From the NCBI GenBank assembly GCA_034432445.1, contig DAOUBX010000094.1:1-62661 (forward strand): a stretch of 62,661 nt of DNA. Direction: 5' to 3'. Positions 3,696-41,433 of this stretch are shown here, one piece after another; position 1 is the first letter of the stretch; each line of letters begins with the position of its first letter. The translations under genes and the position numbers were made by a program. The notes under the pieces were generated by a model, which was not told the origin of the DNA, did no database searches, and was given only the letters and a program-made list of their open reading frames with translations. The stretch is from Anaerolineales bacterium (GTDB lineage Bacteria; Chloroflexota; Anaerolineae; JAAEKA01).

Positions 3696-3735
3696 AAAAA
3701 CAGCGCCGGACGCCTCCGGAGGCGTCCGGCTTTTT
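3696..3735. terminator. Intrinsic terminator hairpin, probably ending the cytochrome operon
   Basis: GCCGGACGCC-TCCGGA-GGCGTCCGGC with A and T runs on its flanks. Confidence 0.6.
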
Positions 3736-3921
3736 GGCGCACCAACAAGCCCCGTTCACGGGGCGCCGTTTGCCAGCCGAGGGTCTTCAGCCCGCGGCGC
3801 TGGCCGCCGGCGCGCGCCTCACATGTGCAACTCGATTACCCGGCTGTTTTGTCGATCTCCAACCAGCGTAACACCCGTCCCGGCGTCGTGCATTCGGTTG
3901 GTAGCCGGACGCACCTACGTG

Positions 3922-5622
3922 CTACGCAGCCGGCGGATGCGGCGGTTCCTCCTCGCGATCGGCAACGGATGCGGCGGCCGGCGGCGCTTCCGACAACTCA
4001 GCCTGATCGGCTGGCGGGACAGCGGCTGGCTCAGCGGCCGGCGCGACGGCAGCAACCGCGGCCTGGGCCGAAGCGGCCGACGGCGCGGCCGGCGCGGCCG
4101 GTCGCTGTCGATACAGCCAGTAGCCGCCGCCGGCCAGGATGCCGATGGACACCAGCAGCACAAGGAACGGGTTCCAGGGGATACGGATGCCAAAGCCGCG
4201 CGCGGCCTCCAGGTTGCCCGACAACAACACCGGCGTCGGCAGCGGCTGCGCGGCCGGAATCACCACCTGCATCCGCAAAGGCTGACGCTGGCCGGCGCTG
4301 GCCGAGCTGATAGAAGTCAGCACGGCTACCTCCTGAGGCGTGTAGCCCAGGGCCGCAAAGTCGACGATGCCGTCCGGCACGTGACAATCCTGGCACGGAC
4401 GCGCGTTCTGCTTGCCCACCACGCCATGGCTGATCTGCAACGGAACGCTCAGCTCCTTGGGCTGCCATGCGCCGCTGTAGGTCATGCCCGATTCCTTGGC
4501 GCCGACCGCGATAGCCCGCTCCAGGTCGCCCTGGGTGTAGAACACGCCCAGCTTGAGCGGGATCGCCTGGCCGCTGCTAGCGTCCACCGGCGCCGTGGCC
4601 TGGAACAGCTTGAAGGGCTGCAGCTTAGACGTCAAATCCGAGCGGCTGCCGGGCCAGGGCTGACCAGACAGGGCCGGCTGGCCGTTGTACCACAGAAAGA
4701 TCGGCTGCACCGAGTTGGGCGGCCGCACGTCGTCCACCGGCGCGTAGAGCTCGGTCACCGGGTCGTAAGTGGGCGGCGCCGTCCAGTCGCGCTCGACCAG
4801 GCCGCCGGTACCCAGCACATGGCAGGTGCGGCAGTCCAGGCGGACGTGTTGGTTGTTGATCAAGGGGTCGGTGTGGGGCGCGGCGGTGTGGCAGGTCTCA
4901 CAGGTCAGCCGCTGATCGGGCAGGTCGCGGCTCCAGATATCCGGCGCAAAGCCCAGGATCTTGTGATTCTGCGCGGCGTGGCAGTCCACACAGGTCATGC
5001 CCGCGTCGGCATGGACATCGGCCTTGCTGGCCTCGCCGTGCTTATCCTCCACCGGTGCAAAGTCCACCCCGCGCTTGAGCATTGGTCCGCCGCCGACGTT
5101 GAGATGGCACAGCAGGCAGTTCTCGGTGGTGGGACGTTGGGCCAGGCGGGCCGTCAACACGCTGCGATCCTGCGTCAACGTCCAAACGCCGTTCTCGTCC
5201 TGAACGGGAAAGCGCAGACCGCTGTCGTAGACCGGCGAATGGCAGATCAGGCAGTCGATGCCGGCCTTGTCGGCCGCCGTCGCCTGCTCTGGCGCAACAG
5301 GCAGCGCGCCGCCGCCGACATGGCAGCGGCCGCAGCCGCCGGGGATGTTGAGCGCCTCGTTAAGCATGCCCAGCCAGTTGATGCGGGCAATGCTACCGGC
5401 CACCGGGCTGTAGTGATCCATCTTGCCCTCCCACGTGTAGTGGATGCTGTGGATCACCTCGTCGGTGACGTTGCCGTGGCACATTTCGCATGTGGCTGGG
5501 CCGTTGTACTCCTGGATGCTCTTATGCGGCTCTGGCGCCTGGGCGTGGACCAGTGTTGGCAACGCAAGCGCGGCCAGCAACAACGCCAACCCGACTGCCA
5601 GGCTTTTCAACCGAAGTATCAC
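3922..5622 (-). CDS. Octaheme c-type cytochrome (OTR / tetrathionate reductase-like fold) with a C-terminal membrane anchor
   Basis: 8 CxxCH (CEMCH, CGRCH, CLICH, CLLCH, CVDCH, CETCH, CRTCH, CQDCH). HYTW, WYNG, PFK and FAALGY segments in OTR-like order. Signal peptide and C-terminal TM. GTG5622 with SD GGAGG overlaps the upstream stop (GTGA). Confidence 0.85.
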   Translation of the reverse strand: MILRLKSLAVGLALLLAALALPTLVHAQAPEPHKSIQEYNGPATCEMCHGNVTDEVIHSIHYTWEGKMDHYSPVAGSIARINWLGMLNEALNIPGGCGRCHVGGGALPVAPEQATAADKAGIDCLICHSPVYDSGLRFPVQDENGVWTLTQDRSVLTARLAQRPTTENCLLCHLNVGGGPMLKRGVDFAPVEDKHGEASKADVHADAGMTCVDCHAAQNHKILGFAPDIWSRDLPDQRLTCETCHTAAPHTDPLINNQHVRLDCRTCHVLGTGGLVERDWTAPPTYDPVTELYAPVDDVRPPNSVQPIFLWYNGQPALSGQPWPGSRSDLTSKLQPFKLFQATAPVDASSGQAIPLKLGVFYTQGDLERAIAVGAKESGMTYSGAWQPKELSVPLQISHGVVGKQNARPCQDCHVPDGIVDFAALGYTPQEVAVLTSISSASAGQRQPLRMQVVIPAAQPLPTPVLLSGNLEAARGFGIRIPWNPFLVLLVSIGILAGGGYWLYRQRPAAPAAPSAASAQAAVAAVAPAAEPAAVPPADQAELSEAPPAAASVADREEEPPHPPAA

Positions 5623-6929
5623 TGTCCACCTCCTTCGGTCTGATGGCAGGTCAGGCACTGCGTCTCTTCGTACGATGTGTGACTGATCGGCATGGGACGC
5701 ATACCGCCCTCTATGGCATGACAGAGCTTACACTGCGCCCAGTCGCCAGCGATGGTGTGGGGGATTACCGGCATCACCATGGCCGGCGCGCCGTCGGTGG
5801 ACGTGGGCGGCGTCTCGCCCGCAGCATGGCACATGGTACACTGCGCGTTGGTGAACGCCTCGTGATTGGCCGGCGCCGGCCGCACTGCGCTGCTAGGAGC
5901 GTGACAGGTGAGGCACTGGCTGTAAGGTCCATCCAGCGGATGGGGCACAGGCCCGGGCCCGGATGGCCCGCCTGCCGGCGCTGTCTCAGGCGGCGCCGGC
6001 TCGCGCGGGCTGGAGGTCAGGGTAATCACGCGCAGCGGCGTGGGCAGAGGTGTTACCTCCAGCCGAATGGCGCGCGGCGTCGGCAGCGCCGGCTGATAGG
6101 CCTGCTGTTCCACCGCCGTGCGCGGCACCGTGGTGATGGCCGTGGTCTCGGCCGTCAGCCAGCGCCACGTGCCCAACACCGACACCAGCACAAAGAGAGT
6201 GGCCAGCGGCGCGTACAGCTTGAGCCGGCTGTAGCGCACCTCTGGCTTGGGCGGCCGCCAGACCTTGCCTTGACGAATTCTCTCGATCTCCTGAGGATGC
6301 TCTTCCTCCATCTGCTCTTCGGTCAGGTAGCCGGTAAACATGCTCTTGTTGAAGACCTTGACGTGGACGTAGTAGGCGTGCCAGATCAGGATCGACAAGA
6401 CGGCCAGCACCGCCTCCATGCCGTGAGCGATCTTGGCCGCGGGCACGATCTCGCCCGGCAGGTATTGCGTGACCAGCACCGGGTTCCACAGCACGTAGCC
6501 GGTGAGCGTCATCAGCACCGTGCCCCACACCACCGCCCAGTACTCGATCTTCTCGATGAAGTTGAAGCGGGGGAAGCGAGGCTTCTGGCGGCTGAGGCCG
6601 AGGTTATACTTGACGGCTGCGAAGAAGTCGGTCACGTCGCCCAACGTCGGCAGCATGCTCATCGACTTGCGCTGCACGTAGACGCGGTAGCCCACTTGCA
6701 CCGCGTGGGCAATGGAGGTCAAGATCAAGATGACCGCGAACGTGTGGTGGATAACCCGCGTTTGCTCGATGCCTCCCAGGGCGCGAATCACGGCCACCGA
6801 GATGCCCAAGTCGGCGTACTTCTGCACCAGGCCTGTGATGGCCAGCATCGTGAAGGAGACCAAGAGCAGCAGGTGCAGCACCCGGTCGCTGACCAGGAAA
6901 CGCAGATAGCGTTGCGTGTTCTCGCTCAT
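5619..6929 (-). CDS. Cytochrome b (FdnI/CbcL-type) fused to a C-terminal tetraheme c domain
   Basis: RVLHLLL, RVIHH, IEYWAVVWG and AHGMEA...WHAYYVH b-heme histidines. 4 CxxCH (CLTCH, CTMCH, CKLCH, CLTCH) after a Pro-rich linker. Confidence 0.88.
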   Translation of the reverse strand: MSENTQRYLRFLVSDRVLHLLLLVSFTMLAITGLVQKYADLGISVAVIRALGGIEQTRVIHHTFAVILILTSIAHAVQVGYRVYVQRKSMSMLPTLGDVTDFFAAVKYNLGLSRQKPRFPRFNFIEKIEYWAVVWGTVLMTLTGYVLWNPVLVTQYLPGEIVPAAKIAHGMEAVLAVLSILIWHAYYVHVKVFNKSMFTGYLTEEQMEEEHPQEIERIRQGKVWRPPKPEVRYSRLKLYAPLATLFVLVSVLGTWRWLTAETTAITTVPRTAVEQQAYQPALPTPRAIRLEVTPLPTPLRVITLTSSPREPAPPETAPAGGPSGPGPVPHPLDGPYSQCLTCHAPSSAVRPAPANHEAFTNAQCTMCHAAGETPPTSTDGAPAMVMPVIPHTIAGDWAQCKLCHAIEGGMRPMPISHTSYEETQCLTCHQTEGGGQ

Positions 6930-8068
6930 GCTTGCACCTCCTCGCGGCGAGACCGCCGGTCTTTGATGTGCCGATAGGCGTCCAAGGCGATGTATACAAT
7001 GAAGAACCCGATCACCATGGGGATGAGGATGCGATAGAACCAGGTCACTGCAGTTACCAGCGGCGCAGTATCGAAGTTAGGCGCGTAATGGCCTAGCCAG
7101 CTCGCCGCAAAGTTGACCGACGCGTCCGGGTGGCACTCCTGGCAGCGCGGCAGGATGTTCGCCTGGATCAGCTCGCTGTCGCGCGTGGCAGGGGCGATGT
7201 CGTGCACGCCATGGCAATCGGTACAGACAGCCTTGTTGGTTGGCTGGTCAGGATGGGTCTTCTCGAACAACATCACCGTGGTGCCGTGGAAATCGGCCAC
7301 ATAGGTGTCGAACACCTCGGTAGAGATGCCGTACTTAGCCATCAACTCCTTGTCGGCGTGGCAACTCCCACACATCTCCGGCGATTGCAGCCGAAAGGCC
7401 AACGTGCGCGGATCGGTAGCCGTGTGCGCCGGGTGACAGGTGATGCACGTTGGCACGTCGGGGTTGCCCGTGCGCAGCGCCTCGCCGTGCACGCTGTCGG
7501 CAAACTGGCTGTGGATGGCGCTGTGGCACTGGGCGCAGATCTCGGCTGAGGCCGTCGCCGGCAGCTCGGGATGCTTCGCCTGGCTGATGGGCTGGACATT
7601 GTGGCTGCCGTGACAGTCAGCGCAGACAGCGGCCTCGCGCACGCCCCCAGCCTGTAGCTGAGCATGGATGCTGTCCACCTCCTGCATGGCCTGATCGGTG
7701 TGGCAGTTGGCGCAACTGTGGCTGTAGTGCAGTTGCAAGTCACGGTGATTGGCTGCCGGCGGAGTTCCATGCGGATAGCCGGTGACGTCGGAGTGACAGT
7801 CCTGACAACGCAGCGCCGCGTGCATCGAGCCCGCCAGCTCAACGCCGTCCATCGTCACAGGCAGCGCCTCGCCAGAGGGAAACGTCAGGTACAGACCCTC
7901 TTGTTGGTGACAGGTGAGGCATGCAACGTTGTCGGGGTTGGCAGCCCCAGGAAATACTTGCGGGGCTTGGGCGTTGGTTGGCCGCCACAGCAGCGCAATG
8001 CCGGCCAGTGCCAGCAACAGAGCGATCCAAAAGCCGCTTGTCAGCCACACATGATTGCGTTCGGTCAT
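6926..8068 (-). CDS. Nonaheme c-type cytochrome with a C-terminal membrane helix
   Basis: 9 CxxCH, an N-terminal signal/TM and a C-terminal TM. ATG8068 follows SD GGAG; the stop overlaps the next ATG (ATGA). Confidence 0.88.
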   Translation of the reverse strand: MTERNHVWLTSGFWIALLLALAGIALLWRPTNAQAPQVFPGAANPDNVACLTCHQQEGLYLTFPSGEALPVTMDGVELAGSMHAALRCQDCHSDVTGYPHGTPPAANHRDLQLHYSHSCANCHTDQAMQEVDSIHAQLQAGGVREAAVCADCHGSHNVQPISQAKHPELPATASAEICAQCHSAIHSQFADSVHGEALRTGNPDVPTCITCHPAHTATDPRTLAFRLQSPEMCGSCHADKELMAKYGISTEVFDTYVADFHGTTVMLFEKTHPDQPTNKAVCTDCHGVHDIAPATRDSELIQANILPRCQECHPDASVNFAASWLGHYAPNFDTAPLVTAVTWFYRILIPMVIGFFIVYIALDAYRHIKDRRSRREEVQA

Positions 8069-8166
8069 CGATCGATCTCCAGGAGCCCGTTGGTGCTTAT
8101 CAAGCGAATTGATCGCACAGATCACACATTGTCCGTGCTCGGCCCAGCGGTGGCACATGCGAAGCC

Positions 8167-8208
8167 ATCATAACAGGATTCAAGGGAAAGACCTATGACG
8201 TAGATCAT
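8167..8208 (-). promoter_or_regulatory. Cytochrome operon promoter: extended -10 plus a Crp/Fnr-like box
   Basis: TGTTATGAT (8175-8167) and ATGAC-GTAG-ATCAT (8195-8208), centred about -41.5 from the predicted start. Confidence 0.5.
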
Positions 8209-8278
8209 GTTTCATGACCAAAATTTGCTCCTGAGCAAAACTCGTTTTTCCACCAAACGCAGCGCCATGCAAGAAAAC

Positions 8279-8307
8279 TTGACGCAGAGTTAGGATAGTG
8301 TTATAAC
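8279..8307 (+). promoter_or_regulatory. Sigma70 promoter
   Basis: TTGACG-N17-TATAAC with TGn extension. Confidence 0.75.
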
Positions 8308-8349
8308 CTGTGACATCTTCGTAGTTTCTCGCAGAATTTCACCAGAACC

Positions 8350-8898
8350 ATGAGCTCCACGCAACGTCACCGCTTCATCTTGGACACTCTTGCCAACCAG
8401 GGATCGGCACGCATCGATGAGCTGGCCGAAGCGCTCAACGTGTCGACCATGACCGTACATCGTGATCTAGACCAGCTGGCGCGCGCGGGTCAACTGCGCA
8501 AGGTGCGAGGCGGCGCAACACTCGTCACCGACGCGATGGCGCCGGATGATCGCTGCCTGGCCTGTTACAAGCCGCTCGATGCGCGCACCCAGGTGACACT
8601 GCACTGGGCCGATGGCACACAGCGCCGCGCCTGTTGCCCACATTGCGGCCTAATGGTTGTGGGTCGAGGGACTGAACGCATTGTTGGCGTGCTGGCGACC
8701 GATTTTCTCTTCGGCCGCAGCATCAACGCGCGCGCTGCCACCTACCTGGCAGCACCCGCCATCGCCGTTTGCTGTACCCCCACCGTGCTGGCCTTCGAAG
8801 ACGCGCACTATGCCCAACGCTTCCAGGCCGGCTTCGGCGGTGAGCTATTCGACCTGAACGGGGCGATAGCCTTTGTCCGCACATCTATGCACCTTTGA
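8350..8898 (+). CDS. ycnK: Copper-sensing DeoR-HTH / NosL-like regulator (YcnK-like)
   Basis: DeoR HTH (VSTMTVHRDLDQL) followed by CLAC, CCPHC, CCTP and RFQAGFGG, the layout of Bacillus YcnK. Confidence 0.78.
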   Translation: MSSTQRHRFILDTLANQGSARIDELAEALNVSTMTVHRDLDQLARAGQLRKVRGGATLVTDAMAPDDRCLACYKPLDARTQVTLHWADGTQRRACCPHCGLMVVGRGTERIVGVLATDFLFGRSINARAATYLAAPAIAVCCTPTVLAFEDAHYAQRFQAGFGGELFDLNGAIAFVRTSMHL

Positions 8899-8912
8899 AA
8901 GGAGACTTGTTT

Positions 8913-9437
8913 ATGCACGTTCGCGACCTTCGCCGTGCGCGGTTCACTGCGCTTTTGGCAGCCTTGCTAGCCCTACTCCTGGTGGCGGCAGCCTGCACCC
9001 AGGCGCCGGCTGCTCCGGTTAGCCAGTCGGGGCTGAGCGCCCAAAACGTCTGGGCTAGGGCGGCTAAGATGATGGGCAGCATGCCCATGGAGGGCGACAC
9101 CCAGCAAATGCAACACGGCGGCGCCAACAGCGCCGTCTACATGGTGCTGGCCAACAAGGGCGCAGCAGCCGATCGCCTGGTCGCTGCGCAGGCTGATGTG
9201 GCTAAGAGCGTCGAGATCCACGAAACCAAAATGGAAGGGGACATGATGCGCATGCAGCCGGTCGAAGGCGGCATCGAAGTCCCAGCCGGCGGCCAGGTCG
9301 AGCTCAAGCCCGGCGGCTACCACGTCATGCTGATCGGTCTGACGCGCGACCTCAACCCCGGCGACAAGTTCCCCGTAACCTTGCAGTTCGCCAGCGGCGC
9401 CACACTGCAAGTAGAGGCTGAGGTGCGCCAGCCCTGA
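8913..9437 (+). CDS. Copper chaperone PCu(A)C lipoprotein
   Basis: Lipobox-like LVAAAC; HETKMEGDMMRM...GGYHVML copper motif; SD AAGGAG. Confidence 0.9.
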   Translation: MHVRDLRRARFTALLAALLALLLVAAACTQAPAAPVSQSGLSAQNVWARAAKMMGSMPMEGDTQQMQHGGANSAVYMVLANKGAAADRLVAAQADVAKSVEIHETKMEGDMMRMQPVEGGIEVPAGGQVELKPGGYHVMLIGLTRDLNPGDKFPVTLQFASGATLQVEAEVRQP

Positions 9438-9440
9438 GGC

Positions 9441-9468
9441 TTGACATCTCGTTCCAACGCGCTATACT
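9441..9468 (+). promoter_or_regulatory. Sigma70 promoter
   Basis: TTGACA-N16-TATACT. Confidence 0.6.
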
Positions 9469-9538
9469 CGTTTCAACCGTTTGATTGTGCGGGCGGCCTT
9501 GCCAGGCCGCTCGCCTCTTTTATCCCGGCCAACTCGCG

Positions 9539-10378
9539 ATGAAGCTTGCTGTACTCGCTGATATACACGCCAACCTGCCTGCGCTGCACGCCGTGCTGGA
9601 GAGCATCGACGCCTGGGGCCCTGACATGGTCGTCGTAGCCGGCGACATCGTCAACCGCGGCCCGCGACCGGCCGAGTGTCTGCGCATCATCCAGGAGCGG
9701 CAGCAGCAGGCCGGCTGGCTCACAGTGGTGGGCAACCACGAGGAGTACGTGCTGCACCAAGCCAGTCCCCAGGCTGCCCGCAGCGGCCCGCAATTCCACA
9801 TCTTCCAAAGCTCTTACTGGACTTATAGACAGCTCAACGGCGATCTATCGGCGCTGGAGGCGATGCCCTTCCAGCAAAGCCTGACCGCCCCCGACGGCAG
9901 CGAAGTGCGCATCGCCCACGCCTCGATGCGCGGCACGCGCGACGGCATCTTCCCTGAGACGCCTGATGACGTGCTACGGCTGCAGGTGGGCCGGCCCTAC
10001 ACGCCGCTCTTCGTCGTTGGGCACACCCACTGGCCGCTGATTCGGCACCTGGACGGCACGCTGGTGGTCAACGCGGGCGCGGTAGGCATGCCTTTCGACG
10101 GCGACCCGCGCGCCAGCTATGCTCAGTTGACGTGGCGGCAGGGTCAGTGGCATGCTGAGATCATCAGACTCGACTACGACCGCCGCCAAACCGAGCAGGA
10201 TTATGTGAACACCGGCTTCTTGGAACACGGCGGCGCGCTAGCGCGCTTGATGCTTGTGGAGCTGCAAAAAGCGCGGTCGCAGCTCTACCAATGGGCGCTG
10301 ACCTACGAAGCGCCGGTGCTGGCCGGCCAGCTAACCATCGAGGAAGCGGTGGATCGTTTTCTTGCCAACTGCGCCTGA
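9539..10378 (+). CDS. Metallophosphoesterase (YfcE-like)
   Basis: ADIHAN, AGDIV, VGNHE, IAHAS, VGHTH, NAGAVG. Confidence 0.88.
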   Translation: MKLAVLADIHANLPALHAVLESIDAWGPDMVVVAGDIVNRGPRPAECLRIIQERQQQAGWLTVVGNHEEYVLHQASPQAARSGPQFHIFQSSYWTYRQLNGDLSALEAMPFQQSLTAPDGSEVRIAHASMRGTRDGIFPETPDDVLRLQVGRPYTPLFVVGHTHWPLIRHLDGTLVVNAGAVGMPFDGDPRASYAQLTWRQGQWHAEIIRLDYDRRQTEQDYVNTGFLEHGGALARLMLVELQKARSQLYQWALTYEAPVLAGQLTIEEAVDRFLANCA

Positions 10379-18195: not shown

Positions 18196-19407
18196 ATGGA
18201 AGACATCGTCATTGTTGGAGGAGTTCGCACACCGACCGGCTCACACGGCGGGGCCTTGCGACCGAAGACGGCCGTAGACCTCGGCGTACTGGTCTTCAAG
18301 ACCATTATCGAGCGCACCGGCGTCGATCCCGCTTTGTTCGACGACGTGATCGTCGGCTGCGCCGGGCAGCCCTCCGAGGCCGCCAACATCGGCCACGTAG
18401 TCGGCCTGCTGGCGGGCGTGCCGCAGCACGTGCCGGGCTACACCGTGCACCGCAACTGCGCCAGCGGCCTAGAGGCCATTGTCAGCGCTTACCGGGCGAT
18501 CGCATCGGGGGAGGGCACGCTGTACTTGGTGGGCGGCACCGAAAGCATGAGCAACGCTCCCTACTTGGTCAAGGGCGCACGCTGGGGCCTGAAACTGCGC
18601 CACGGCGAGCTCACCGACGGTATTTGGGAGGCTCTGACCGACCCGGTTTGCGGGCTCATCATGGGCGCCACAGCTGAGAACCTGGCCGAACGTTACGAGA
18701 TCAGCCGGGAAGAACAGGACAAGTACGCAGTCGAAAGCCACAAGAAAGCCTTTCGCGCCCAGCGCATGGAGAAGTTCAAGGACGAGATCGTTCCGGTCGA
18801 GATCATCAAGAAGGTAGCGGGCCAAGAGGTGGCGCGCGAGGTGGTCACGCAGGACGAGGGCGTCAACCCGACGCTGACCGTTAGCAAGGCTGCGCTGTAC
18901 CCGACGGTGTTCAAGAAAAACGGCACGGTCACCCCGGCCAACGCCTGCCCGCTCAATGACGCTGCGGCTGCAGTGATCGTCACGACTGCTAAGCGCGCCG
19001 CTGAGCTAGGCTTGAAGCCACGCGCGCGCATTGTCAGCTATGCCTTCGTGGGGGTCGACCCGGCGTACATGGGCATCGGCCCGGCCTACGCCATGCCCAA
19101 AGCGCTGCACAAGGCCGGTCTGAGCCTGGATGACATCGGTGTGATCGAGCTCAACGAGGCCTTCGCTGCGCAGGTGCTGGCCTGCGCGATCGAGATGCAG
19201 CGCCAGGGGCACAACTGGGATTGGAAGAAAGTCAACCCCTTGGGCGGTGGCATCGCTTTGGGCCACCCCATCGGCGCCACCGTGGTCAAGCTCACGGTCA
19301 CCATGATGGGTGAGATGGAGCGCGAGAAGCACAAGTATGGCATGGTGACAATGTGCGTCGGCGGCGGCCAAGGCGGCGCGATGATTCTGGAAAACTTGAG
19401 CGTTTGA
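18196..19407 (+). CDS. Acetyl-CoA C-acyltransferase (thiolase)
   Basis: RNCASG, NEAFAA, GHPIGAT, MCVGGGQG. Confidence 0.95.
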   Translation: MEDIVIVGGVRTPTGSHGGALRPKTAVDLGVLVFKTIIERTGVDPALFDDVIVGCAGQPSEAANIGHVVGLLAGVPQHVPGYTVHRNCASGLEAIVSAYRAIASGEGTLYLVGGTESMSNAPYLVKGARWGLKLRHGELTDGIWEALTDPVCGLIMGATAENLAERYEISREEQDKYAVESHKKAFRAQRMEKFKDEIVPVEIIKKVAGQEVAREVVTQDEGVNPTLTVSKAALYPTVFKKNGTVTPANACPLNDAAAAVIVTTAKRAAELGLKPRARIVSYAFVGVDPAYMGIGPAYAMPKALHKAGLSLDDIGVIELNEAFAAQVLACAIEMQRQGHNWDWKKVNPLGGGIALGHPIGATVVKLTVTMMGEMEREKHKYGMVTMCVGGGQGGAMILENLSV

Positions 19408-19523
19408 CAGGTGGTGCGCAATTCGTCAATGTGGAACCTGACGCCAGGTGCACAGGTTTCACCGCACGCATTGCTCGTCACTCAACACGACTTATAGCCT
19501 AGTGCACACGAAAGAGGTTGACT

Positions 19524-20753
19524 ATGTACATTTTTAAGGCAGGCGTTGTCGGCGCCGGGTTCATGGGCGCCGAGATCGCCCAGGTCATCAGCTTCAGCGG
19601 CTTGCCGGTGGTGGTCAAGGACATCGACCCTGCCATGCTGCAGAAGGCCGAGGATCACATTCGCGCCATTTACCAGGGCCGCGTCGACAAGGGCAAGATG
19701 ACCGCGGGCGAGCTGCGCGACAAAATGGACTTGATCGAGTTCACCCTGGATTACGACTCATTCGCCGACGCTGACTTCATCATCGAGGCCGTGCCGGAGC
19801 GCATGGATTTGAAGGTCAAGGTCTTCCAAGAACTGGCCAAGGTGGCGCCGGAGACAGCCATCTTCGCCTCCAACACCTCGGCCCTTAGCATTTCGGAGAT
19901 GGGCTTCAAAGGCGGCCGGCCGGAGCGCACGATCGGCATGCACTTCTTCAGCCCGGCCCACGTGATGAAGCTGGTAGAGGTCATTCCCGGCCTGGACACA
20001 GCGCAAGATGTGATCGACGATACCGTACAGTTCACCGAAAGCTTGCGCAAGATCGCCGTCGTCGTCAAGGAGTGCCCCGGCTTCCTGGTCAACCGCCTGC
20101 TGGCGCCTTACTTAGGTGAGGCCATGATGGCGCTGCAAGAGGGCGCAGCCACAGCGAGCGAGATCGACGAGGCCATGGTCGACTTCGGCATGCCGATGGG
20201 GCCGTTCACCTTGCTCGATTTCATGGGCATCGACGTTAGCGCGCATGCCGGCGCGTACATGGCCAGCGAATACGGCCCACGCTTCGAGTCGCCCGAGATC
20301 CTCAAGCGCCTGGTAGCAGCCGGCCGCTACGGCGAGAAAACCGGCGCCGGCTTCTACGGCTATGGCGAGCAAACTGACGCCCCCGTCAAGCAGATGATCG
20401 CCGAGATCCAGGCCAGCGGCATTCCCAAGGGCCCCTTCACCGTCGAGCGCTTGATCTTCCCCATGATCAACGAAGCGGCCCTAATTGCGCAGGAGAACAT
20501 TGCCTCCATCCCCGACATCGACATGGCGATGATCGCCGGCACCGGCATGACCTACAAAGGCGAACGCATGGGCCCGCTGGCCATTGCCGACGAGTACGGC
20601 CTGGACGTGGTGCTGGCCGGCCTGGAGCAGATGCTGCATGAGCCGTGGGGCGGTGAGCGCTTCCGCCCCTCGCTGCTACTCAAGACCAAGGTGCGCGCCG
20701 GCCATCTCGGCAAGAAGACGGGCCGCGGGTTCCATGAGCACATGGCATGGTAG
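19524..20753 (+). CDS. 3-hydroxyacyl-CoA dehydrogenase (duplicated C-terminal domain)
   Basis: GVVGAGFMG, IEAVPE, SNTS, GMHFFSP, PMGP and MGPL, GKKTGRGF. Confidence 0.93.
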   Translation: MYIFKAGVVGAGFMGAEIAQVISFSGLPVVVKDIDPAMLQKAEDHIRAIYQGRVDKGKMTAGELRDKMDLIEFTLDYDSFADADFIIEAVPERMDLKVKVFQELAKVAPETAIFASNTSALSISEMGFKGGRPERTIGMHFFSPAHVMKLVEVIPGLDTAQDVIDDTVQFTESLRKIAVVVKECPGFLVNRLLAPYLGEAMMALQEGAATASEIDEAMVDFGMPMGPFTLLDFMGIDVSAHAGAYMASEYGPRFESPEILKRLVAAGRYGEKTGAGFYGYGEQTDAPVKQMIAEIQASGIPKGPFTVERLIFPMINEAALIAQENIASIPDIDMAMIAGTGMTYKGERMGPLAIADEYGLDVVLAGLEQMLHEPWGGERFRPSLLLKTKVRAGHLGKKTGRGFHEHMAW

Positions 20754-20847
20754 ATCGGTAATTGGTAGATCGGTTAAGTGGTAAATGGGTGGTCGCGCGA
20801 CCAACTGACCACTTGACCAATCTACCAACCTACCACTTTACCAATTC
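20749..20847. repeat. Octamer arrays in inverted arrangement (GGTAnATn / nACCAnTn)
   Basis: ggtagatc ggtaatt ggtagatc ggttaagt ggtaaatg ... gaccactt gaccaatc taccaacc taccactt taccaatt. The first unit contains TAG 20751-20753. Confidence 0.85.
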
Positions 20848-20958
20848 GTAACTGCTCAGGTGCCGGGTATTTGTAGGCGATTTGCGATCTAGGTTGGCTT
20901 CTCAGACACGTTTGCAAACCAGAATCCACATGCCCGGCACCTATGGCTGAGTAGTTAC
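20848..20958. mobile_element. 111-bp MITE
   Basis: TIRs GTAACTGCTCAG / CTGAGTAGTTAC and subterminal GTGCCGGG / CCCGGCAC, with a perfect 8-bp direct repeat ACCAATTC at 20840-20847 and 20959-20966. Confidence 0.85.
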
Positions 20959-20987
20959 ACCAATTCACTAATACAGGAGACATCCCC

Positions 20988-21776
20988 ATGGCAGAGTACC
21001 AGAACATCAAGTACGGCGTGCAGGATAAGATCGCCGTCATTGCCATTGACCATCCCCCGGCCAACGCCTTCAACCTGCGCACCCTGGACGAGCTAGAGGC
21101 AGCCTTTGACGAGGCCACGGCTGCGGCAGACGTCAAGGCGATCATCATCACCGGCGCCGGCCAGTTTGCCTTTGTGGCGGGCGCTGACATCAACGAGATC
21201 AAGGCGCTAGCCAGCGACTACGAGGCCATCAAGGGCTTCATGCTCAAGGGCCAGACTCTGTTCAGCAAGATCGAGGCCAGCAAGAAGCCGGTCATTGCCG
21301 CCGTCAACGCCGTGGCCCTGGGCGGCGGTTTGGAGCTCTGCCTGGCCTGCCATATCCGCGTGGCCGGCGACAAGGCGCGCTTCGGCCTGCCGGAAATCAA
21401 CCTGGGCATCATCCCCGGCTGGGGCGGCACGCAGCGCTTGCAGCGCGTGATCCCCAAGGGCAAGGCCATCGAGATGATCCTCACCGGCGACATCATCAAC
21501 GCTCAGGATGCCTATCGCATCGGGCTGGTGGAGAAGGTCGTGCCCGCCACGGCGGTGGTGAAGGAGGCCATGGGCCTGGCCAAGAAGCTCACCGAAAAGG
21601 GCGGCTTGGCCGTGGCAGCGGCGCTGGATGCTATCAACTTTGGCGCCGATGCACCGCTGGCCGAGGGCCTAGCCCGCGAGCTGGAAAACGTCTCGCGCCT
21701 CGCCCAGAGCAACGACGCGCGCGAGGGCGTCACCGCCTTCCTCGAAAAACGGCGGCCCAACTTTACCGATAGCTAG
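20988..21776 (+). CDS. Enoyl-CoA hydratase (crotonase)
   Basis: AGADINE, ALGGGLEL, PEINLGIIPGWGGTQRL, FLEKRRPNF. Confidence 0.95.
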   Translation: MAEYQNIKYGVQDKIAVIAIDHPPANAFNLRTLDELEAAFDEATAAADVKAIIITGAGQFAFVAGADINEIKALASDYEAIKGFMLKGQTLFSKIEASKKPVIAAVNAVALGGGLELCLACHIRVAGDKARFGLPEINLGIIPGWGGTQRLQRVIPKGKAIEMILTGDIINAQDAYRIGLVEKVVPATAVVKEAMGLAKKLTEKGGLAVAAALDAINFGADAPLAEGLARELENVSRLAQSNDAREGVTAFLEKRRPNFTDS

Positions 21777-21793
21777 AGGTGAGCTTGGCAAAC

Positions 21794-21864
21794 GGTGATC
21801 GGTGGGCAGCTGGCACTACCCACTTTCCACCGATCACCGACCACCGGTGACCGATCACCACCCC
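21794..21864. repeat. Heptamer array (GGTGATC / ACCGATC)
   Basis: ggtgatcggtg ... accgatc accgacc accggtg accgatc acc, ending at the SD AAGGAGG. Confidence 0.75.
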
Positions 21865-21876
21865 AAGGAGGCACAC

Positions 21877-23016
21877 ATGAATTTTGCCTTCACCGAAGAG
21901 CAAGAGATGTTTCGCGAGATGTTCGCCGGCTTCGTCGCCAAGGAAGTTGAGCCACAGGCGGAGCATATCGCTGAATACGAAGAAGTGCCCATGAGCTTGC
22001 TCAAGAAGGCCGCCATGCAGGGTTTCCTGGGCGCGCTGCTGCCGGAAGAGTACGGCGGCGCCGCGCTTGACCCGGTGAGCTACATCCTGCTGCTGGAAGA
22101 AGTCGCCAAGGCCTGCATGAGCACCGCCATGACCTTGCACATCCACAACAGCCTGGTTAGCCAAGCCATTCTGCTCTGGGGCACCGACGAGCAGAAAGAG
22201 CAATGGCTGCCAGCCATGGCTGAAGGCAGCGTCATCGGCGCCTGGGCCTTTGCTGAGCCCGATGCCATCTCGCTGCATTCCACGCAGACCAAGGCCACGG
22301 CCTACGACGATGGTTACACCCTGCATGGCACCAAAGCCTGGGTGTCGAACGCGGGCATCGCCGGGCTTTACGTGATCTTCGCCGTGGCACCCGAAGGGCC
22401 GACGGCCTTTCTGGTGCCGGCTGACGCCCAGGGGCTGAAGCTGGGCAACCGCGACAAAACCCTGGGCATGCGCGGGGTGCAGATCCATCCGGTCTATCTC
22501 AACGACGTGGTCGTTCCTGCCAGCGGCGTGTTGGGCGAGCCGGGCGGCGCACAGGCAGTGCTAGATGCCGTCACGGACTTCTCGCGCCTCTCTATGGCCG
22601 CGATTGCGCTGGGCGGCGCGCACCATGCCCTGGAGCTAGGCGTCAAGTTCGCCATTGACCGCAAACAGTTCGGCGTGGAAATCGCGCGCAAAGGCGCCAT
22701 TCAGGCCTATATCGCCGATTCGGCGCTGGAGGTAGAGACGCTACGCAGCCAGATCTACCGCTGCGCTTCGCTGGCCGAACAAGGCAAACTAGACCGGGAG
22801 GCGGCCGCAATCGCCAAGCTGTGGGCCAACCGCGTCGCCTATCAGGTCGGCAACCGCATGATCCAGACCCACGGCGGCTACGGCTACATCCTGGACTACG
22901 CCATCGGCCGCGTCTTCCGCGACTGCCGCACTGTCGAGGGCATCGAAGGGACCAACCGCTCGCAACAGACGGCTATCGCCCGCAGCGTGCTGGCGGCACA
23001 TGGGTTTGCAATGTGA
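21877..23016 (+). CDS. Acyl-CoA dehydrogenase (divergent copy)
   Basis: PEEYGG, KAWVSNAG, RKQFG, IQTHGGYGY, EGTN. The first FAD motif is degenerate (FAEPDAIS). Confidence 0.88.
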   Translation: MNFAFTEEQEMFREMFAGFVAKEVEPQAEHIAEYEEVPMSLLKKAAMQGFLGALLPEEYGGAALDPVSYILLLEEVAKACMSTAMTLHIHNSLVSQAILLWGTDEQKEQWLPAMAEGSVIGAWAFAEPDAISLHSTQTKATAYDDGYTLHGTKAWVSNAGIAGLYVIFAVAPEGPTAFLVPADAQGLKLGNRDKTLGMRGVQIHPVYLNDVVVPASGVLGEPGGAQAVLDAVTDFSRLSMAAIALGGAHHALELGVKFAIDRKQFGVEIARKGAIQAYIADSALEVETLRSQIYRCASLAEQGKLDREAAAIAKLWANRVAYQVGNRMIQTHGGYGYILDYAIGRVFRDCRTVEGIEGTNRSQQTAIARSVLAAHGFAM

Positions 23017-23100
23017 CGCGTAACGCGTAACGAAGTCATGGTGCGCCGTTCGCAGGCGAGCGGAGCTCGTCACAAAGGACTGGTTACGGGTTACGGTTCG
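23013..23100. repeat. Heptamer arrays in inverted arrangement (GTAACGC / GGTTACG)
   Basis: gtgacgc gtaacgc gtaacga ... ggttacg ggttacg. The first unit contains TGA 23014-23016. Confidence 0.7.
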
Positions 23101-23137
23101 TCTCGGCTTGGCACCCACCTGTAGGAAGGTAAACCAT

Positions 23138-24301
23138 ATGGACCTGACACTACCCAAAGAGTACGACCTGTTGCGCCAGATGATCCGGGATGTCATGGAG
23201 AACGAGTTTGCGCCGATCGCAGAAGAGGCCGACGAGAAAGCCGAGGTGCCCTTCGATGCACTCAAGGTCGCCGCTCAGGCCGGGCTGCTGGGCATTCCCT
23301 TTCCCCAGGAGTACGGCGGCAGCGGCGCAGGCGAGATGGGCTACGTGATCCTGATGGAAGAGATCAGCCGTGTGGACAGCGCCATGGCCACCGTGGTCGG
23401 CGCCCACATCGGCATCGCGGCCATGGCCATCTACGTAGACGGCTCGCACGCCCTGAAAGAGAAGTACCTTACGCCGTTGGCGCAAGGCACCAAGATCGGC
23501 GCCTTCTGCCTCACCGAGCCCGGTGCCGGCTCGGACGCCGCCAACATCAAGACGCGCGCCGTGCGAGCCAACGGCAAATGGGTCATCACCGGCAACAAGA
23601 TCTACATCAGCAACGGCCCCTTCGCCGACCTCTTTTCGGTCCTGGCGGTGACCAATCCGGCGCTCGGCGCGCGCGGTGGCGTAACGGCCTTTGTCGTCGA
23701 GAAGGAGATGGGACCCAAGGTGGGCGTGGTCGAGAAGAAGTTGGGCATTCGTGCCTCGGCCACCTCTGAGATCATCTTCGACGAGGTCGAAGTGCCGGCT
23801 GCCAACATCATCGGCCAAGAAGGCCTGGGGTTCGTCACCTTCATGAAAACGCTGGACCTGGGCCGGGTAACCGTCGGCGCAGCCTCGTTGGGCGGCGCAC
23901 AGAAGGCGCTGGAGATGGTGATCGACTACGCCCGGTTGGCGGAGAAGTACGGCATGCCGCTGGCGCACCAGCAGCAAGTGCAGTTCATGATCGCCGACAT
24001 GTACTCGTGGATCGAGATGCTGCGCGGGCTGGTCTATCGCACCGCCTGGCTGGTAGACAACAAACGCCCCTTCGCCCGCGAGGCTTACGTCTGCAAGCTG
24101 ATGGGCAGCGAGATCGCCAGTCGCACCGTCAGCTATGCTATGGAGATCCATGGCGCCCTCGGCCTCAGCCGCGATTACCCGCTGGAGCGCGCCTTCCGTG
24201 ACGCGCGCATCGCTGAGATCTTCGAGGGCACCAACGAAATTCAGCGCATCATCATCGCCCGCGACCTGCTCAAGGAAGTCGGCGTGCACATCGAGCCATA
24301 G
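23138..24301 (+). CDS. Acyl-CoA dehydrogenase (butyryl-CoA DH-like)
   Basis: FCLTEPGAGSDA, KIYISNG, KLGIRAS, IFEGTNEIQR. Confidence 0.93.
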   Translation: MDLTLPKEYDLLRQMIRDVMENEFAPIAEEADEKAEVPFDALKVAAQAGLLGIPFPQEYGGSGAGEMGYVILMEEISRVDSAMATVVGAHIGIAAMAIYVDGSHALKEKYLTPLAQGTKIGAFCLTEPGAGSDAANIKTRAVRANGKWVITGNKIYISNGPFADLFSVLAVTNPALGARGGVTAFVVEKEMGPKVGVVEKKLGIRASATSEIIFDEVEVPAANIIGQEGLGFVTFMKTLDLGRVTVGAASLGGAQKALEMVIDYARLAEKYGMPLAHQQQVQFMIADMYSWIEMLRGLVYRTAWLVDNKRPFAREAYVCKLMGSEIASRTVSYAMEIHGALGLSRDYPLERAFRDARIAEIFEGTNEIQRIIIARDLLKEVGVHIEP

Positions 24302-24315
24302 CGAAGGAGGCGTGC

Positions 24316-25098
24316 ATGCGTATCGTCGTTTGTATCAAACAGATCTTGGACCCCGCCACCATCAAGATCAGCCGCAGCCAGCAGGCCATTGATGAACGCG
24401 GGGCCAAGAAGATCATGAACCCACCCGACCGCTGGGCGCTGGATGCTGCGCTGCGTTTCAAGGAAGCCGACCCCTCCATTGAGGTCATCGCCATGTCCGT
24501 CGGCGAGCCGGAGGTGGAGGATGTGCTGCGCGAGGCTCTGGCGCTGGGCTGCGATCGAGCGATCCTGTTGAGCGACCCTTACATTGTCAAGGCGCGCACG
24601 GCCGGCCTGGCGCAGATAATCGCAGCTGCCATCAAACGCTTACACAATGTGCAAATGGTCATGACCGGTCACATGGCGCTGGACACGGGCAGCGGAACGC
24701 TGGGGCCGCGCGTGGCCATCGAGCTCGGCGGCTGGCCGGTCTTGATGAATGTCGACCAACTGCGCCTGGAAAATGGGCACGCCATTGGCTTGCAGGCGGC
24801 CGATGAGAAGTACTACCACTCCAGCTACCCGTTGCCGGTGGTGGCGACCATCCTCGAGACTCCACAACACCCACGCTATCCCCACGGCTCGGCCATCATC
24901 AACGCCTACAGGCAGAGGAGTGTGGAGGTGTGGAGCAGCATGGCGCTGGGCATTGACCCCACCAGCCTGCCTGCACCCACCACCAGCCGGCAGATGCGCA
25001 TTCCTCCGCCCCGCGAGCTTGGCGTCATCATCGAGGGATCGCCAGAGGAAGCGGCCCAGACCCTGGTCGCCGCGCTCAAGGCGCGTCGTATCATCTAG
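24316..25098 (+). CDS. etfB: Electron transfer flavoprotein beta subunit
   Basis: IVVCIKQILDP, MNPPDRWALDAALRFKE, ALALGCDRAILL, PRYP. Confidence 0.9.
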   Translation: MRIVVCIKQILDPATIKISRSQQAIDERGAKKIMNPPDRWALDAALRFKEADPSIEVIAMSVGEPEVEDVLREALALGCDRAILLSDPYIVKARTAGLAQIIAAAIKRLHNVQMVMTGHMALDTGSGTLGPRVAIELGGWPVLMNVDQLRLENGHAIGLQAADEKYYHSSYPLPVVATILETPQHPRYPHGSAIINAYRQRSVEVWSSMALGIDPTSLPAPTTSRQMRIPPPRELGVIIEGSPEEAAQTLVAALKARRII

Positions 25099-25116
25099 CC
25101 ACCCAGGAGAGAGTCT

Positions 25117-26136
25117 ATGGACCTGTCATTTCTAGAGCAATTGCTCGGCCCCACAGTCGAGGAAGAAGAGGGCTACCGCAACATCTGGGTGGTCGCAGTT
25201 GCATGGGATCCGTTTGTGCGGCCATGCGATCTGCAAGTGCTGGGCAAAGCGCGCAACCTGGCCGATAGCCTTGGCGCCTATGTGAATGCCTTGCTCATCG
25301 GCGAGGCCGCTTCAGAAGACCTGGCGCGCGAGTTGATCGCCTATGGCGCCGACATGGTGTGCTGGGGCGCCGGCTATCCGACCGGCACCAGCCTCATGGA
25401 GTTCGTCAACCAGCGCAAGCCGGAGATCTTGCTGTTTGCCGATGCCGCAGGTGGTCGCAAGATGGCGCCGCGGCTGGCACAGCGCCTCAAGACCGCCCTT
25501 GTCACCCACGCCGTCGATCTGTCGATCAATGCTGAAGAGCGCAGCTTGGTTGTGGCTGTCCCCATCTACCGCGGCGCCGCCTACCGCGTGGTGGAATGCA
25601 AGACCAAGCCCCAGATCGCCACGATCCAGCCTGGCATCTTCCCTGTGCCAGAGCGCAACGACTGGCGCAGCGGTGACATCGAGGAGGTTGAGCTGGTCTA
25701 CAAACCCCAGCCGCCGCTCATCCCCGTGGAACCGCCCAGCTACTACATCCCCCTGGAAAAAGCGGATATCATCATCGCCGGCGGCCGCGGCCTGCGCGAC
25801 GCCGGTTGGCATCTGGTGGAGGAGCTGGCAGCCGCCTTTGCTCGCAAGATGCCGCAGAAGGCCATTGCGGTGGCCGGCACACGCGGCGCAGTGGATGAAG
25901 GCTGGATCGAACCCAAGCACATGGTGGACATCACCGGCAAGGCGGTGGCGCCGGATCTCTACATCGCGTGCGGCGTGCGCGGCACCTTCCAGCACTTTGC
26001 CGCCAGCGAAAAAGCGCGTTGTATCGTGGCCATCAACCACAATCCCGATGCGCCGATCTTCAAACACGCCGACTTCGGCATCGTCGGCAAAGTCGAAGAG
26101 GTTATCCCGGCGCTGATCGCAGCGCTGGACAGCTAA
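25117..26136 (+). CDS. etfA: Electron transfer flavoprotein alpha subunit
   Basis: AGGRG, TRGAVDEGW, PDLYIACG, AINHNPDAPIFKHADFGIVG. Confidence 0.9.
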   Translation: MDLSFLEQLLGPTVEEEEGYRNIWVVAVAWDPFVRPCDLQVLGKARNLADSLGAYVNALLIGEAASEDLARELIAYGADMVCWGAGYPTGTSLMEFVNQRKPEILLFADAAGGRKMAPRLAQRLKTALVTHAVDLSINAEERSLVVAVPIYRGAAYRVVECKTKPQIATIQPGIFPVPERNDWRSGDIEEVELVYKPQPPLIPVEPPSYYIPLEKADIIIAGGRGLRDAGWHLVEELAAAFARKMPQKAIAVAGTRGAVDEGWIEPKHMVDITGKAVAPDLYIACGVRGTFQHFAASEKARCIVAINHNPDAPIFKHADFGIVGKVEEVIPALIAALDS

Positions 26137-40377: not shown

Positions 40378-40647
40378 GGCCGTGCACCCCTCGTCGAACT
40401 GCGACCCCCGGCTTACCGAACCAGTAGGCTCCAGCCAGGCTACCCCGTGGCACCCACAGGTGACCGCTTATGGCTGCTACCTCCCGGTCCTGACCAGGTT
40501 CACGGGCCTGCGCCGCACAGGACCCAGCTCTCGACGCCACTTAGCCCGGCAGTCACAAAGATCGTCGAGCCCTTGGAGTGGGAATTCAGCCCCGCTATAG
40601 CGGATTGCGGGTACAAGGCACCGCTAGCGCCCCGCTTAGCACGACCA
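40378..40647 (-). ncRNA. ffs: Large (Alu-containing) signal recognition particle RNA
   Basis: Helix-8 motif TCAGGACCGGGAGGTAGCAGC. Complementary ends GGTCGTGC / GCACGGCC about 270 nt apart, with own promoter and terminator. Confidence 0.93.
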
Positions 40648-40652
40648 CCCTC

Positions 40653-40681
40653 ATTGTACCGCAGATAAGGAGGGGTGGCAA
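40653..40681 (-). promoter_or_regulatory. ffs promoter
   Basis: TTGCCA-N17-TACAAT. Confidence 0.8.
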
Positions 40682-40752
40682 GTTGGCTGCCGCGCGTTGT
40701 GCGCAGACTTGAATCAAAAAGTCGGCGTCCAACACGCCGACTTTCTGGACAC

Positions 40753-40842
40753 TGGCGGAGAGGGTGGGATTTGAACCCACGATCCCCGGAGGGATACGCG
40801 CTCTCCAGGCGCGCGCACTAGACCGGACTATGCGACCTCTCC
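40753..40842 (-). tRNA. tRNA-Ser(GGA)
   Basis: 90 nt; anticodon arm CGCGC-CTGGAGA-GCGCG, long variable arm, GGTTCAAATCC, encoded CCA. Confidence 0.97.
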
Positions 40843-40909
40843 ATGAACTACGAGGATTATACCATTACCGCTCAGGCGCCACCAAATCTGCCCTTGTCGT
40901 AACCGTTTG

Positions 40910-41160
40910 GTAACTGCTCAGCCCGGTGAACGGAACACCTGCACTTGCATCGCAGGTGCAAGTGTTCACCGCGTCTGACAGCACGACACCTGCGCCTGCG
41001 CCGACGAAGCCTTAAGAAGCGAAGCGCCTGGTGGGCCGCAGGCGAGGTGCAGGTGAGCGGCCACAGCCGCTGGGAACACGCTCCGCCAGGCTCTGCGGGG
41101 CCTTCGTACTGTCAGCCGGGGATTTCCAATCCTTGGATAGGGGTACGCCTGAGCAGTTAC
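40910..41160. mobile_element. 251-bp MITE of the same TIR family
   Basis: Perfect TIRs GTAACTGCTCAG / CTGAGCAGTTAC. Flanks ACCGTTTG and ACTGTTTG match at 7 of 8. Hairpin-rich interior. Confidence 0.78.
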
Positions 41161-41343
41161 ACTGTTTGAACATATGGCCGGGCACCTGAGTCCACGTTTG
41201 TAAGGGTGTTCGCAGAGCCGACTTCCGCTGCAGACCGGTCGTCAGTGTGCGGCACCTGCATAGGCCCTTTGTCAACGATGACTCGACCCAAGATTTTGAA
41301 ACAAGAGCGCCCCGGCAGGGTGCTTTCTGCCGGGGCGCCTGAT

Positions 41344-41433
41344 TGGCGGAGAGGGTGGGATTTGAACCCACGAGGGCGTAAACCCTACGCGTTTTCGAGA
41401 CGCGCGCACTCGGCCAAACTATGCGACCTCTCC
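41344..41433 (-). tRNA. tRNA-Ser(CGA)
   Basis: 90 nt; anticodon arm CGCGT-CTCGAAA-ACGCG, long variable arm, encoded CCA. Confidence 0.97.

Follow-up and report, generated by a model that had tools for sequence, protein, structure and literature searches.

Contig DAOUBX010000094.1, a stretch of 62,661 nt (62.7 kb) that was analysed whole and is referred to here as the window, carries on its minus strand an operon of three multiheme cytochrome genes, A, B and C, lying in that order from 8068 to 3922; all coordinates are those of the window. Gene A (8068..6926) encodes a nonaheme c-type cytochrome of 380 aa with nine CxxCH motifs, gene B (6929..5619) a 436-aa diheme cytochrome b of the FdnI/HydC type with a C-terminal tetraheme tail, and gene C (5622..3922) a 566-aa octaheme protein with eight CxxCH motifs and the fold of octaheme tetrathionate reductase (OTR). 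In the sequence itself, the stop codon of A overlaps the start codon of B in ATGA (6926..6929, minus strand) and the stop of B overlaps the start of C in GTGA (5619..5622, minus strand). Ribosome-binding sites of the GGAGG type lie 5–9 nt 5' of both downstream starts, GGAGG itself 8 nt upstream of B and AAGGAGGTG upstream of C. Gene calls and motif counts confirm the arrangement proposed in an earlier sequence-only reading of this DNA, that is, a nonaheme followed by a cytochrome b with four CxxCH and an octaheme, joined by ATGA and GTGA overlaps. Together the three proteins have 21 CxxCH sites for heme c, and B would hold two b-type hemes, judging from its conserved histidines. Every cysteine falls within a CxxCH motif (18/18 in A, 8/8 in B and 16/16 in C), and shuffled versions of the three sequences contain on average 0.005–0.06 such motifs each, with a maximum of two. 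Besides A, B and C there are no further multiheme genes in the 62.7-kb window.

The B protein consists of a four-helix b domain, a fifth helix, a proline-rich linker and four CxxCH motifs at residues 339, 364, 400 and 425. The b-type domain with its putative quinol site, counted with all five helices, occupies residues 1–255 (6165..6929, minus strand), and its first ~220 residues match the prokaryotic cytochrome b561/FdnI family (PF01292, E 3e-12), TIGR01583 (E 2.4e-15, 57 bits against a cutoff of 115.85) and Escherichia coli FdnI itself (1kqf_C, E 4.6e-8). His19, His61 and His169 align exactly with the FdnI heme ligands His18, His57 and His155, and His184 aligns one residue away from FdnI His169; these four, together with H75 and H189, are invariant among 23 homologs. 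The usual database name for B, formate dehydrogenase gamma subunit, was rejected, the TIGR01583 score being below cutoff and FdnGH genes being absent; no genes for molybdopterin or iron-sulfur (FeS) subunits are present in the window or at related loci. Homologs of B number more than 1,491 at E ≤ 1e-5, and those that are named come almost entirely from Anaerolineae, Caldilineales and other Chloroflexota.

The tetraheme tail of B (residues 330–436; 5622..5942, minus strand) comprises two diheme repeat modules. An alignment of homologs gives the repeat unit as IPHxxxG..CxxCH..PxPxxH..CxxCH, with Pro/Thr/Ala-rich linkers between modules, and two extra conserved histidines per module are consistent with bis-His ligation. 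Tail heme number varies widely among homologous loci, which have 0, 1, 2, 3, 6, 8 or 10 compared with four in the window. The same diheme repeat also ends NapC/NrfH-like cytochromes encoded beside A-B at three other loci (L009 6319-7989, L021 9280-11199 and L040 9127-10740), and it looks like a portable "beads-on-a-string" heme module strung on Pro/Thr/Ala linkers.

The A protein has an N-terminal hydrophobic segment (residues 9–27), a heme domain of ~300 aa and a C-terminal helix (residues 344–362). The last of these had been recognised in the sequence-only reading, which missed the N-terminal segment; this may be an uncleaved anchor, since a proline directly follows the AQA site. Nine non-motif histidines are invariant across 25 aligned homologs, enough for nine bis-His hemes, which suggests that all nine hemes of A are so ligated; the last of the nine, H327, stands just before the helix and could serve a b heme instead. 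At 4.2 kDa per heme for A, and 3.4–4.2 kDa across A and the B tail, both appear wire-like on the scale of PMC7096707. Pfam matches for A are Cytochrome_C7 and Paired_CXXCH, and weak profile matches were obtained to DmsE, NrfB and OcwA. A fold search with the AlphaFold2 model (pLDDT 79) gave weak HAO-like matches, the best at E 0.0096 and a TM-score of ~0.3. The 278-aa "Cytochrome c" of PDB entry 28pb_A matches the A profile at E 2e-5 and has the motif spacing of A in common over six hemes.

Topology was predicted from the distribution of lysine and arginine. The cytoplasmic parts of B by this count are the N-terminus, the loop between the second and third transmembrane helices (eight K/R) and that between the fourth and fifth (nine K/R); the tails past the C-terminal helices of A (six K/R in 18 residues) and of C (which begins RQR) are likewise predicted to be cytoplasmic. 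The fifth helix of B would carry the tetraheme tail outward, so that the c-type heme domains of A, the B tail and C are all predicted to be extracytoplasmic, which is the placement that c-type heme attachment requires. The claim that every cytochrome of the trio is tethered to the membrane stands, with helices found in A, B and C, and a cytoplasmic location of the heme domains, which the sequence-only reading had named as grounds for giving up its proposal, is contradicted by the predicted topology of all three proteins.

The association of A with B extends far beyond the window. We assembled a synteny set of 80 loci from species-representative (GTDB) genomes, 77 of which extend far enough to show the upstream neighbour of B. 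In 75 of the 77 that neighbour is an A-like gene, which often overlaps B, and 52 of these A-like genes encode exactly nine hemes. Cultured Anaerolinea thermolimosa and a metagenome-assembled genome (MAG) of A. thermophila are among the hosts. A complete Anaerolineales chromosome (L075) has two near-identical reduced pairs ~5 kb apart (3793-5333 and 8776-10304), each a four-heme A-like gene with a 243-aa B-like gene. Single-chain forms were sought by phmmer with residues 1–255 of B against 1.84 billion representatives, which returned 1,945 matches at E ≤ 0.001. One match from an Anaerolineae MAG (P0371, 641 aa) is A and B in a single chain, with nine CxxCH motifs and six helices past the signal peptide; its identity to A is 48% over 363 residues (E 6e-113), and that to the b domain of B is also 48% (E 2e-83). 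A second (P0418, 780 aa) is a fused A+B with a four-heme tail and 13 c-type heme motifs, equivalent to the A and B of the window in one chain, and more distant fusions of 603–651 aa with nine hemes are represented by P0497, P0461 and P0468, the last from Candidatus Schekmanbacteria.

These fusions have the layout of CbcL (GSU0274) of Geobacter sulfurreducens, a 619-aa protein with nine bis-His hemes in its N-terminal part, six transmembrane helices and a HydC/FdnI-like diheme b domain (PMC6295460, PMC9129911, bioRxiv 10.1101/2021.04.15.440034). A and B together likewise comprise nine hemes and 1+5 helices, in the same c-before-b order; the b domain is again diheme and of the FdnI/HydC type, and FeS, flavin and molybdenum subunits are lacking in both. 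They differ in that the single Geobacter polypeptide is here two translationally coupled genes, split at the cytoplasmic loop after the first helix; in that B bears the extra tetraheme tail past its last helix; and in that the host is a Chloroflexota-like, probable monoderm without periplasmic partners of the PpcA type. Fragments of GSU0274 recovered by optical character recognition (OCR) from the supplement of PMC9129911 are colinear with B residues 7–34 and 90–136 (z 3.6–6.3) and fit B better than they fit FdnI, which is weak evidence, the query being garbled. The description of A-B as a split CbcL-like module is right in architecture, on the evidence of adjacency in 75/77 loci, fusions at 48% identity and the count of nine hemes and six helices, and it is very probably right in homology; strict membership of the CbcL family, which would also take a single chain, orthology and function, goes further than this. 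A survey published in 2018 recorded no CbcL homologs in Chloroflexi, and noted the CbcL/MtoC/MtrH family in Fe(III)-reducing as well as Fe(II)-oxidising bacteria, which no feature of the sequence sets apart (PMC6295460).

A second system of G. sulfurreducens, CbcBA, also has a separate, C-terminally anchored multiheme c subunit encoded beside a diheme b subunit, as A is beside B, and cbcB-cbcA fusions in Chloroflexi have been mentioned in passing (bioRxiv 10.1101/2021.04.15.440034). CbcA, however, has seven hemes rather than nine, and CbcB is PhsC-like, with four helices and three histidine ligands plus one from CbcA, whereas B has five helices and the full FdnI-type histidine set. By published description, CbcB has no sequence homology to the b domains of the CbcL type, and no sigma-54/BccR regulator was seen beside A-B.

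The third protein, C, belongs to the OTR family. It has a signal peptide ending VHA|QA, a C-terminal helix at residues 486–504 and a 62-residue cytoplasmic tail that is rich in alanine and proline and acidic. Shewanella OTR (SO4144, PDB 1SP3) is matched over its full length (1sp3_A, phmmer E 2.6e-24) with all eight CxxCH motifs colinear, and is the sole PDB fold match to the AlphaFold model of C (pLDDT 79.9; Foldseek E 2.7e-23, TM-score 0.65). The score against PF11783 is 50.7 bits, above the gathering cutoff of 22.1, and that against TIGR04315 is 161 bits, below the cutoff of 375; weak matches to NrfA, NrfB and NrfH models were also obtained. Mass per heme is common to the two proteins as well, 6.2 kDa for C against a published 6.1 for OTR (PMC7096707). 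C departs from OTR in its C-terminal anchor and cytoplasmic tail, in a loop carrying His195, in its genetic coupling to a bc module and in falling short of the TIGR04315 cutoff. The anchor is kept in 13 of 13 members of the C subfamily, in which ten non-motif histidines are conserved, including His70 and the His195 of the subfamily-specific loop.

The most consequential difference concerns the active site. Three elements make up this site in OTR, namely a lysine that serves as ligand, a cysteine and the second heme motif (Supplementary Fig. 14 legend, bioRxiv 10.1101/2023.04.20.537704). C retains the second heme motif, as CGRCH at residue 97, while phmmer and MAFFT alignments agree in placing Ser77 and Gly85 opposite OTR Lys56 and Cys64, and the subfamily alignment contains no conserved lysine near Ser77. 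Because the catalytic lysine and cysteine of OTR are missing, C is, on its sequence, not simply a known reductase. A further relative, MmcA of Methanosarcina, is an OTR-related conduit for extracellular electron transfer (EET) in a cell without an outer membrane (bioRxiv 10.1101/2023.04.20.537704). Like C it is an OTR-derived, membrane-associated multiheme protein, and C matches the corresponding model TIGR04314 weakly (E 3.9e-11, 42 bits against a cutoff of 250). MmcA is, however, a heptaheme without the second heme motif and is encoded in an Rnf operon, whereas C retains the full set of eight and is linked to a module of the quinol-oxidase type; no rnf genes are present with C.

The distribution of C is much narrower than that of A-B. 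A C-like gene follows B in only three of 70 genome loci, and C homologs of at least ~50% identity define 16 distinct trio loci (the window, L091, L001, L082, L093, L095, L007, L008, L012, L081, L087-L090, L096 and L097) within one Chloroflexota subclade. A-B lies directly upstream of C at every trio locus for which upstream sequence is available; two short contigs (L092 and L094) end within B or before it. Neither A-B nor a small cytochrome b was found beside generic OTR homologs (≤ 44% identity) at ~70 metagenome loci. The best matches to A, B and C are from Anaerolineae MAGs, for example L001, "Anaerolinea sp.", at 70–80% identity, and identical A, B and C proteins occur in Logan assemblies of SRR321053xx runs.

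At eight of the trio loci (L007, L008, L081, L087, L088, L089, L090 and L096) a conserved block on the same strand precedes A. It encodes a lipoprotein whose four rhodanese domains all have a CYTG(Q/H)T loop at the active site, an anchored monoheme cytochrome of ~110–136 aa and a decaheme cytochrome of ~370 aa, with a divergent LysR regulator. Four trio loci have the decaheme only, one of them (L012) on a contig that ends inside the decaheme gene. Neither rhodanese nor decaheme could be found in the window by tblastn at E < 1e-6, and both are also absent from its closest relative, L091. Weak matches to models of Geobacter ExtH and ExtM were also obtained. Just upstream of the rhodanese operon in L089 (positions 1-838), a further OTR-like protein of 432 aa is encoded ahead of a 207-aa cytochrome b of its own, so that this genome also has a simpler pairing of an OTR homolog with a cytochrome b. 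Tail length in B can be set beside the presence of the decaheme. Where the decaheme is encoded upstream, two hemes are the rule for the B tail (11 of 12 loci), the exception being L081, which has a fragmented decaheme and no tail hemes; at complete loci without it the tail has four hemes (window) or six (L091). The longer tail may compensate for the missing decaheme, on a small sample.

In other systems the reduction of polysulfide, thiosulfate and selenite is accompanied by rhodaneses outside the cytoplasm, Sud of Wolinella being one example. In the monoderm Dethiobacter, clusters of Otr/SirA-like octaheme and rhodanese genes have been linked to thiosulfate and sulfur respiration (PMC10376724). 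The rhodanese and decaheme context is suggestive of sulfur or selenium chemistry no less than of mineral reduction. The quinol-to-surface pathway first proposed for this operon, to minerals or electrodes, stays a candidate, and a mineral-only reading is weakened by the extracytoplasmic rhodaneses in the operons of orthologous trios. The sequence-only reading had missed that the octaheme is of the OTR family. The sequence-only reading had also asked whether a conserved link to a known terminal reductase would already account for the module; the OTR-family octaheme and rhodanese operons go part of the way, but no canonical reductase operon is linked. Dethiobacter and the OcwA/CwcA system of Thermincola resemble A-B-C as cytochrome-only respiratory chains of monoderms, and A weakly matches OcwA (6I5B, profile E 6e-8). 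These Gram-positive systems show no close homology, however, and employ NapC/ImcH-like or unknown quinol oxidases rather than a bc module of the CbcL type.

We propose, with a probability of about 0.6, that A, B and C form one membrane-bound respiratory complex through which electrons pass from quinol to b hemes, heme wires and an acceptor at the outer face. A and B would constitute a two-gene bc-type quinol:cytochrome c oxidoreductase of CbcL architecture, in which (mena)quinol would give up its electrons at the diheme b domain of B, which resembles FdnI. The analogy with FdnI and CbcL would have the quinol site face the cytoplasm, so that little energy would be conserved here (bioRxiv 10.1101/2022.08.31.506072). 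The two b hemes would take the electrons across the membrane and into extracytoplasmic, all-bis-His wires, either A, held beside B by its C-terminal helix, or the tetraheme tail of B, or both; C, an OTR-fold octaheme on its own helix, would then hand them to the acceptor at the outer membrane face. Formation of the complex, the direction of flow, the position of the quinol site and the acceptor are what we infer here; the structure of the genes with their motifs and overlaps, the families they belong to, the pairing of A with B, the fused forms and the confinement of C to A-B loci of one subclade are seen directly. A-B can be regarded as a conserved quinol:cytochrome hub, and C as a lineage-specific terminal module. 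For the acceptor we tentatively prefer, at somewhat short of even odds, a sulfur or selenium species (polysulfide, thiosulfate, tetrathionate or selenite) because of the OTR ancestry of C and the rhodanese lipoproteins of orthologous operons; the main alternative is Fe(III) minerals or shuttles. A bolder version, which we consider rather unlikely, has A-B as the general hub of Anaerolineae with a tail whose length is tuned to cross the wall, and C as a new catalytic cytochrome in which heme 2 has a ligand other than lysine; with the rhodaneses, this would amount to cytochrome-only sulfur or selenium respiration in monoderms, with no molybdoenzyme or Dsr.

Four points weigh against the proposed complex and its preferred acceptor. 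Without the lysine and cysteine of OTR, and with ten conserved histidines available for eight bis-His hemes, C may be a non-catalytic conduit like MmcA. Direct orthology of A-B to GSU0274 is weakly founded on the OCR fragments (z 3.6–6.3). The CbcL family is represented among Fe(III) reducers as well as Fe(II) oxidisers (PMC6295460), and electrons might run in either direction. Finally, rhodanese and decaheme are missing from the operon of the window itself, and the hint of sulfur or selenium chemistry is borrowed from orthologs at 51–70% identity.

The strongest competing explanation, an appreciable possibility though well below even odds, is that A-B-C is a dedicated EET conduit carrying quinol electrons across the monoderm wall to Fe(III)/Mn(IV) minerals, electrodes, humics or partner cells, with C as a non-catalytic terminal or relay cytochrome. 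The loss of the OTR lysine and cysteine and the supply of conserved histidines sufficient for all-bis-His ligation fit such a role, as does the precedent of MmcA, an OTR relative that serves EET in the absence of an outer membrane (bioRxiv 10.1101/2023.04.20.537704). A string of 0–10 hemes on Pro/Thr/Ala-rich linkers, as in the tails of B, would suit the spanning of a cell wall, and elsewhere in the Anaerolineae A-B has genes for large multiheme cytochromes, of 10–32 hemes, all around it. Multiheme-rich Anaerolineales occur in anode communities, and Ardenticatena performs EET (PMC7399161, PMC5808234). Yet A, B and C are all anchored in the cytoplasmic membrane, and the window encodes no cytochrome that would span the wall or sit at the surface; nor does mineral reduction explain the rhodaneses of orthologous operons, although Geobacter ExtH shows that the two can coexist. 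The cultured Anaerolinea species that carry A-B are, moreover, known as fermenters.

Reverse operation, in which an extracytoplasmic donor such as thiosulfate, sulfide/polysulfide or Fe(II) would feed the quinone pool, as proposed for the CbcL homologs MtoC/MtrH of iron oxidisers, is improbable. The b domain of FdnI, to which B is homologous through 1kqf, is physiologically quinone-reducing in Fdn-N, and rhodaneses are also active in thiosulfate oxidation; low-potential bis-His wires and the OTR fold are, on the other hand, mostly tied to reduction, and the operon has no linked gene for a terminal oxidase or nitrate reductase. The occurrence of CbcL/MtoC/MtrH homologs in reducers and oxidisers alike (PMC6295460) leaves room for either direction. 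Least probable is that C is a reductase or detoxifier of nitrogen species (nitrite, hydroxylamine or NO) fed by A-B: in vitro, the OTR of Shewanella does reduce nitrite and hydroxylamine (Atkinson et al. 2007, as relayed in PMC8840924) and C weakly matches NrfA, NrfB and NrfH, but the lysine ligand is missing, no catalytic Tyr/His/Arg triad of the NrfA type was identified in C, no nitrogen-cycle genes lie near the trio in any of the 16 loci, and the rhodanese linkage points elsewhere.

On either side of the operon, the window offers a few further features. A terminator-like hairpin lies ~190 nt past the stop codon of C (3705..3730, minus strand), with an 11-bp stem of nine G-C pairs and a T-rich tail on both strands. 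The promoter of the operon is presumed to lie in the intergenic region between A and a divergent gene (8069..8349), where a consensus scan upstream of A on the minus (coding) strand found no sigma-70-like promoter. The divergent gene encodes a DeoR-type helix-turn-helix protein with a cysteine-rich C-terminal half (CxxC...CCPHC) and overlaps by 4 nt a gene for a PCu(A)C copper chaperone (PF04314, E 4e-39); the two (8350-9437, plus strand) look like a copper-sensing and copper-handling pair. Both were rejected as components of the cytochrome system, not being conserved beside the trio at other loci.

The rest of the window is housekeeping in character, with β-oxidation genes and electron transfer flavoprotein (ETF), MreBC/PBP2/RodA, a large signal recognition particle (SRP) RNA and two tRNA-Ser genes. 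The β-oxidation cluster (18196-26136, plus strand) comprises thiolase, 3-hydroxyacyl-CoA dehydrogenase, enoyl-CoA hydratase, two acyl-CoA dehydrogenases and ETF beta/alpha. Electrons from this pathway could plausibly feed the quinone pool, but its genes are not linked to the cytochrome operon. The SRP RNA, of the large Bacillus type (190 bits), adjoins the tRNA-Ser genes with GGA and CGA anticodons (40380-41433, minus strand). Chloroflexi are treated as monoderm (PMC5808234, PMC7399161), and the host is probably so too.

In the literature we searched, neither the A-B module nor the anchored OTR subfamily is described for Chloroflexota. Sediments, digesters, anammox granules and anode biofilms all harbour abundant Anaerolineae, and we know of no described route from their quinone pool to their multiheme cytochromes. 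The Anaerolineales are rich in such cytochromes (PMC7399161). A-B provides a concrete and nearly universal candidate for the first quinone-to-cytochrome step in Anaerolineae, and its presence in the cultured Anaerolinea thermophila and A. thermolimosa makes it testable. The finding is not categorically new, in that it extends the themes of CbcL, CbcBA and OTR to a different cell plan. The C subfamily, which has the OTR fold, has lost the known active-site residues, has gained an anchor and is tied to a bc module, offers a handle on the choice between sulfur or selenium respiration and mineral respiration by cytochromes alone.

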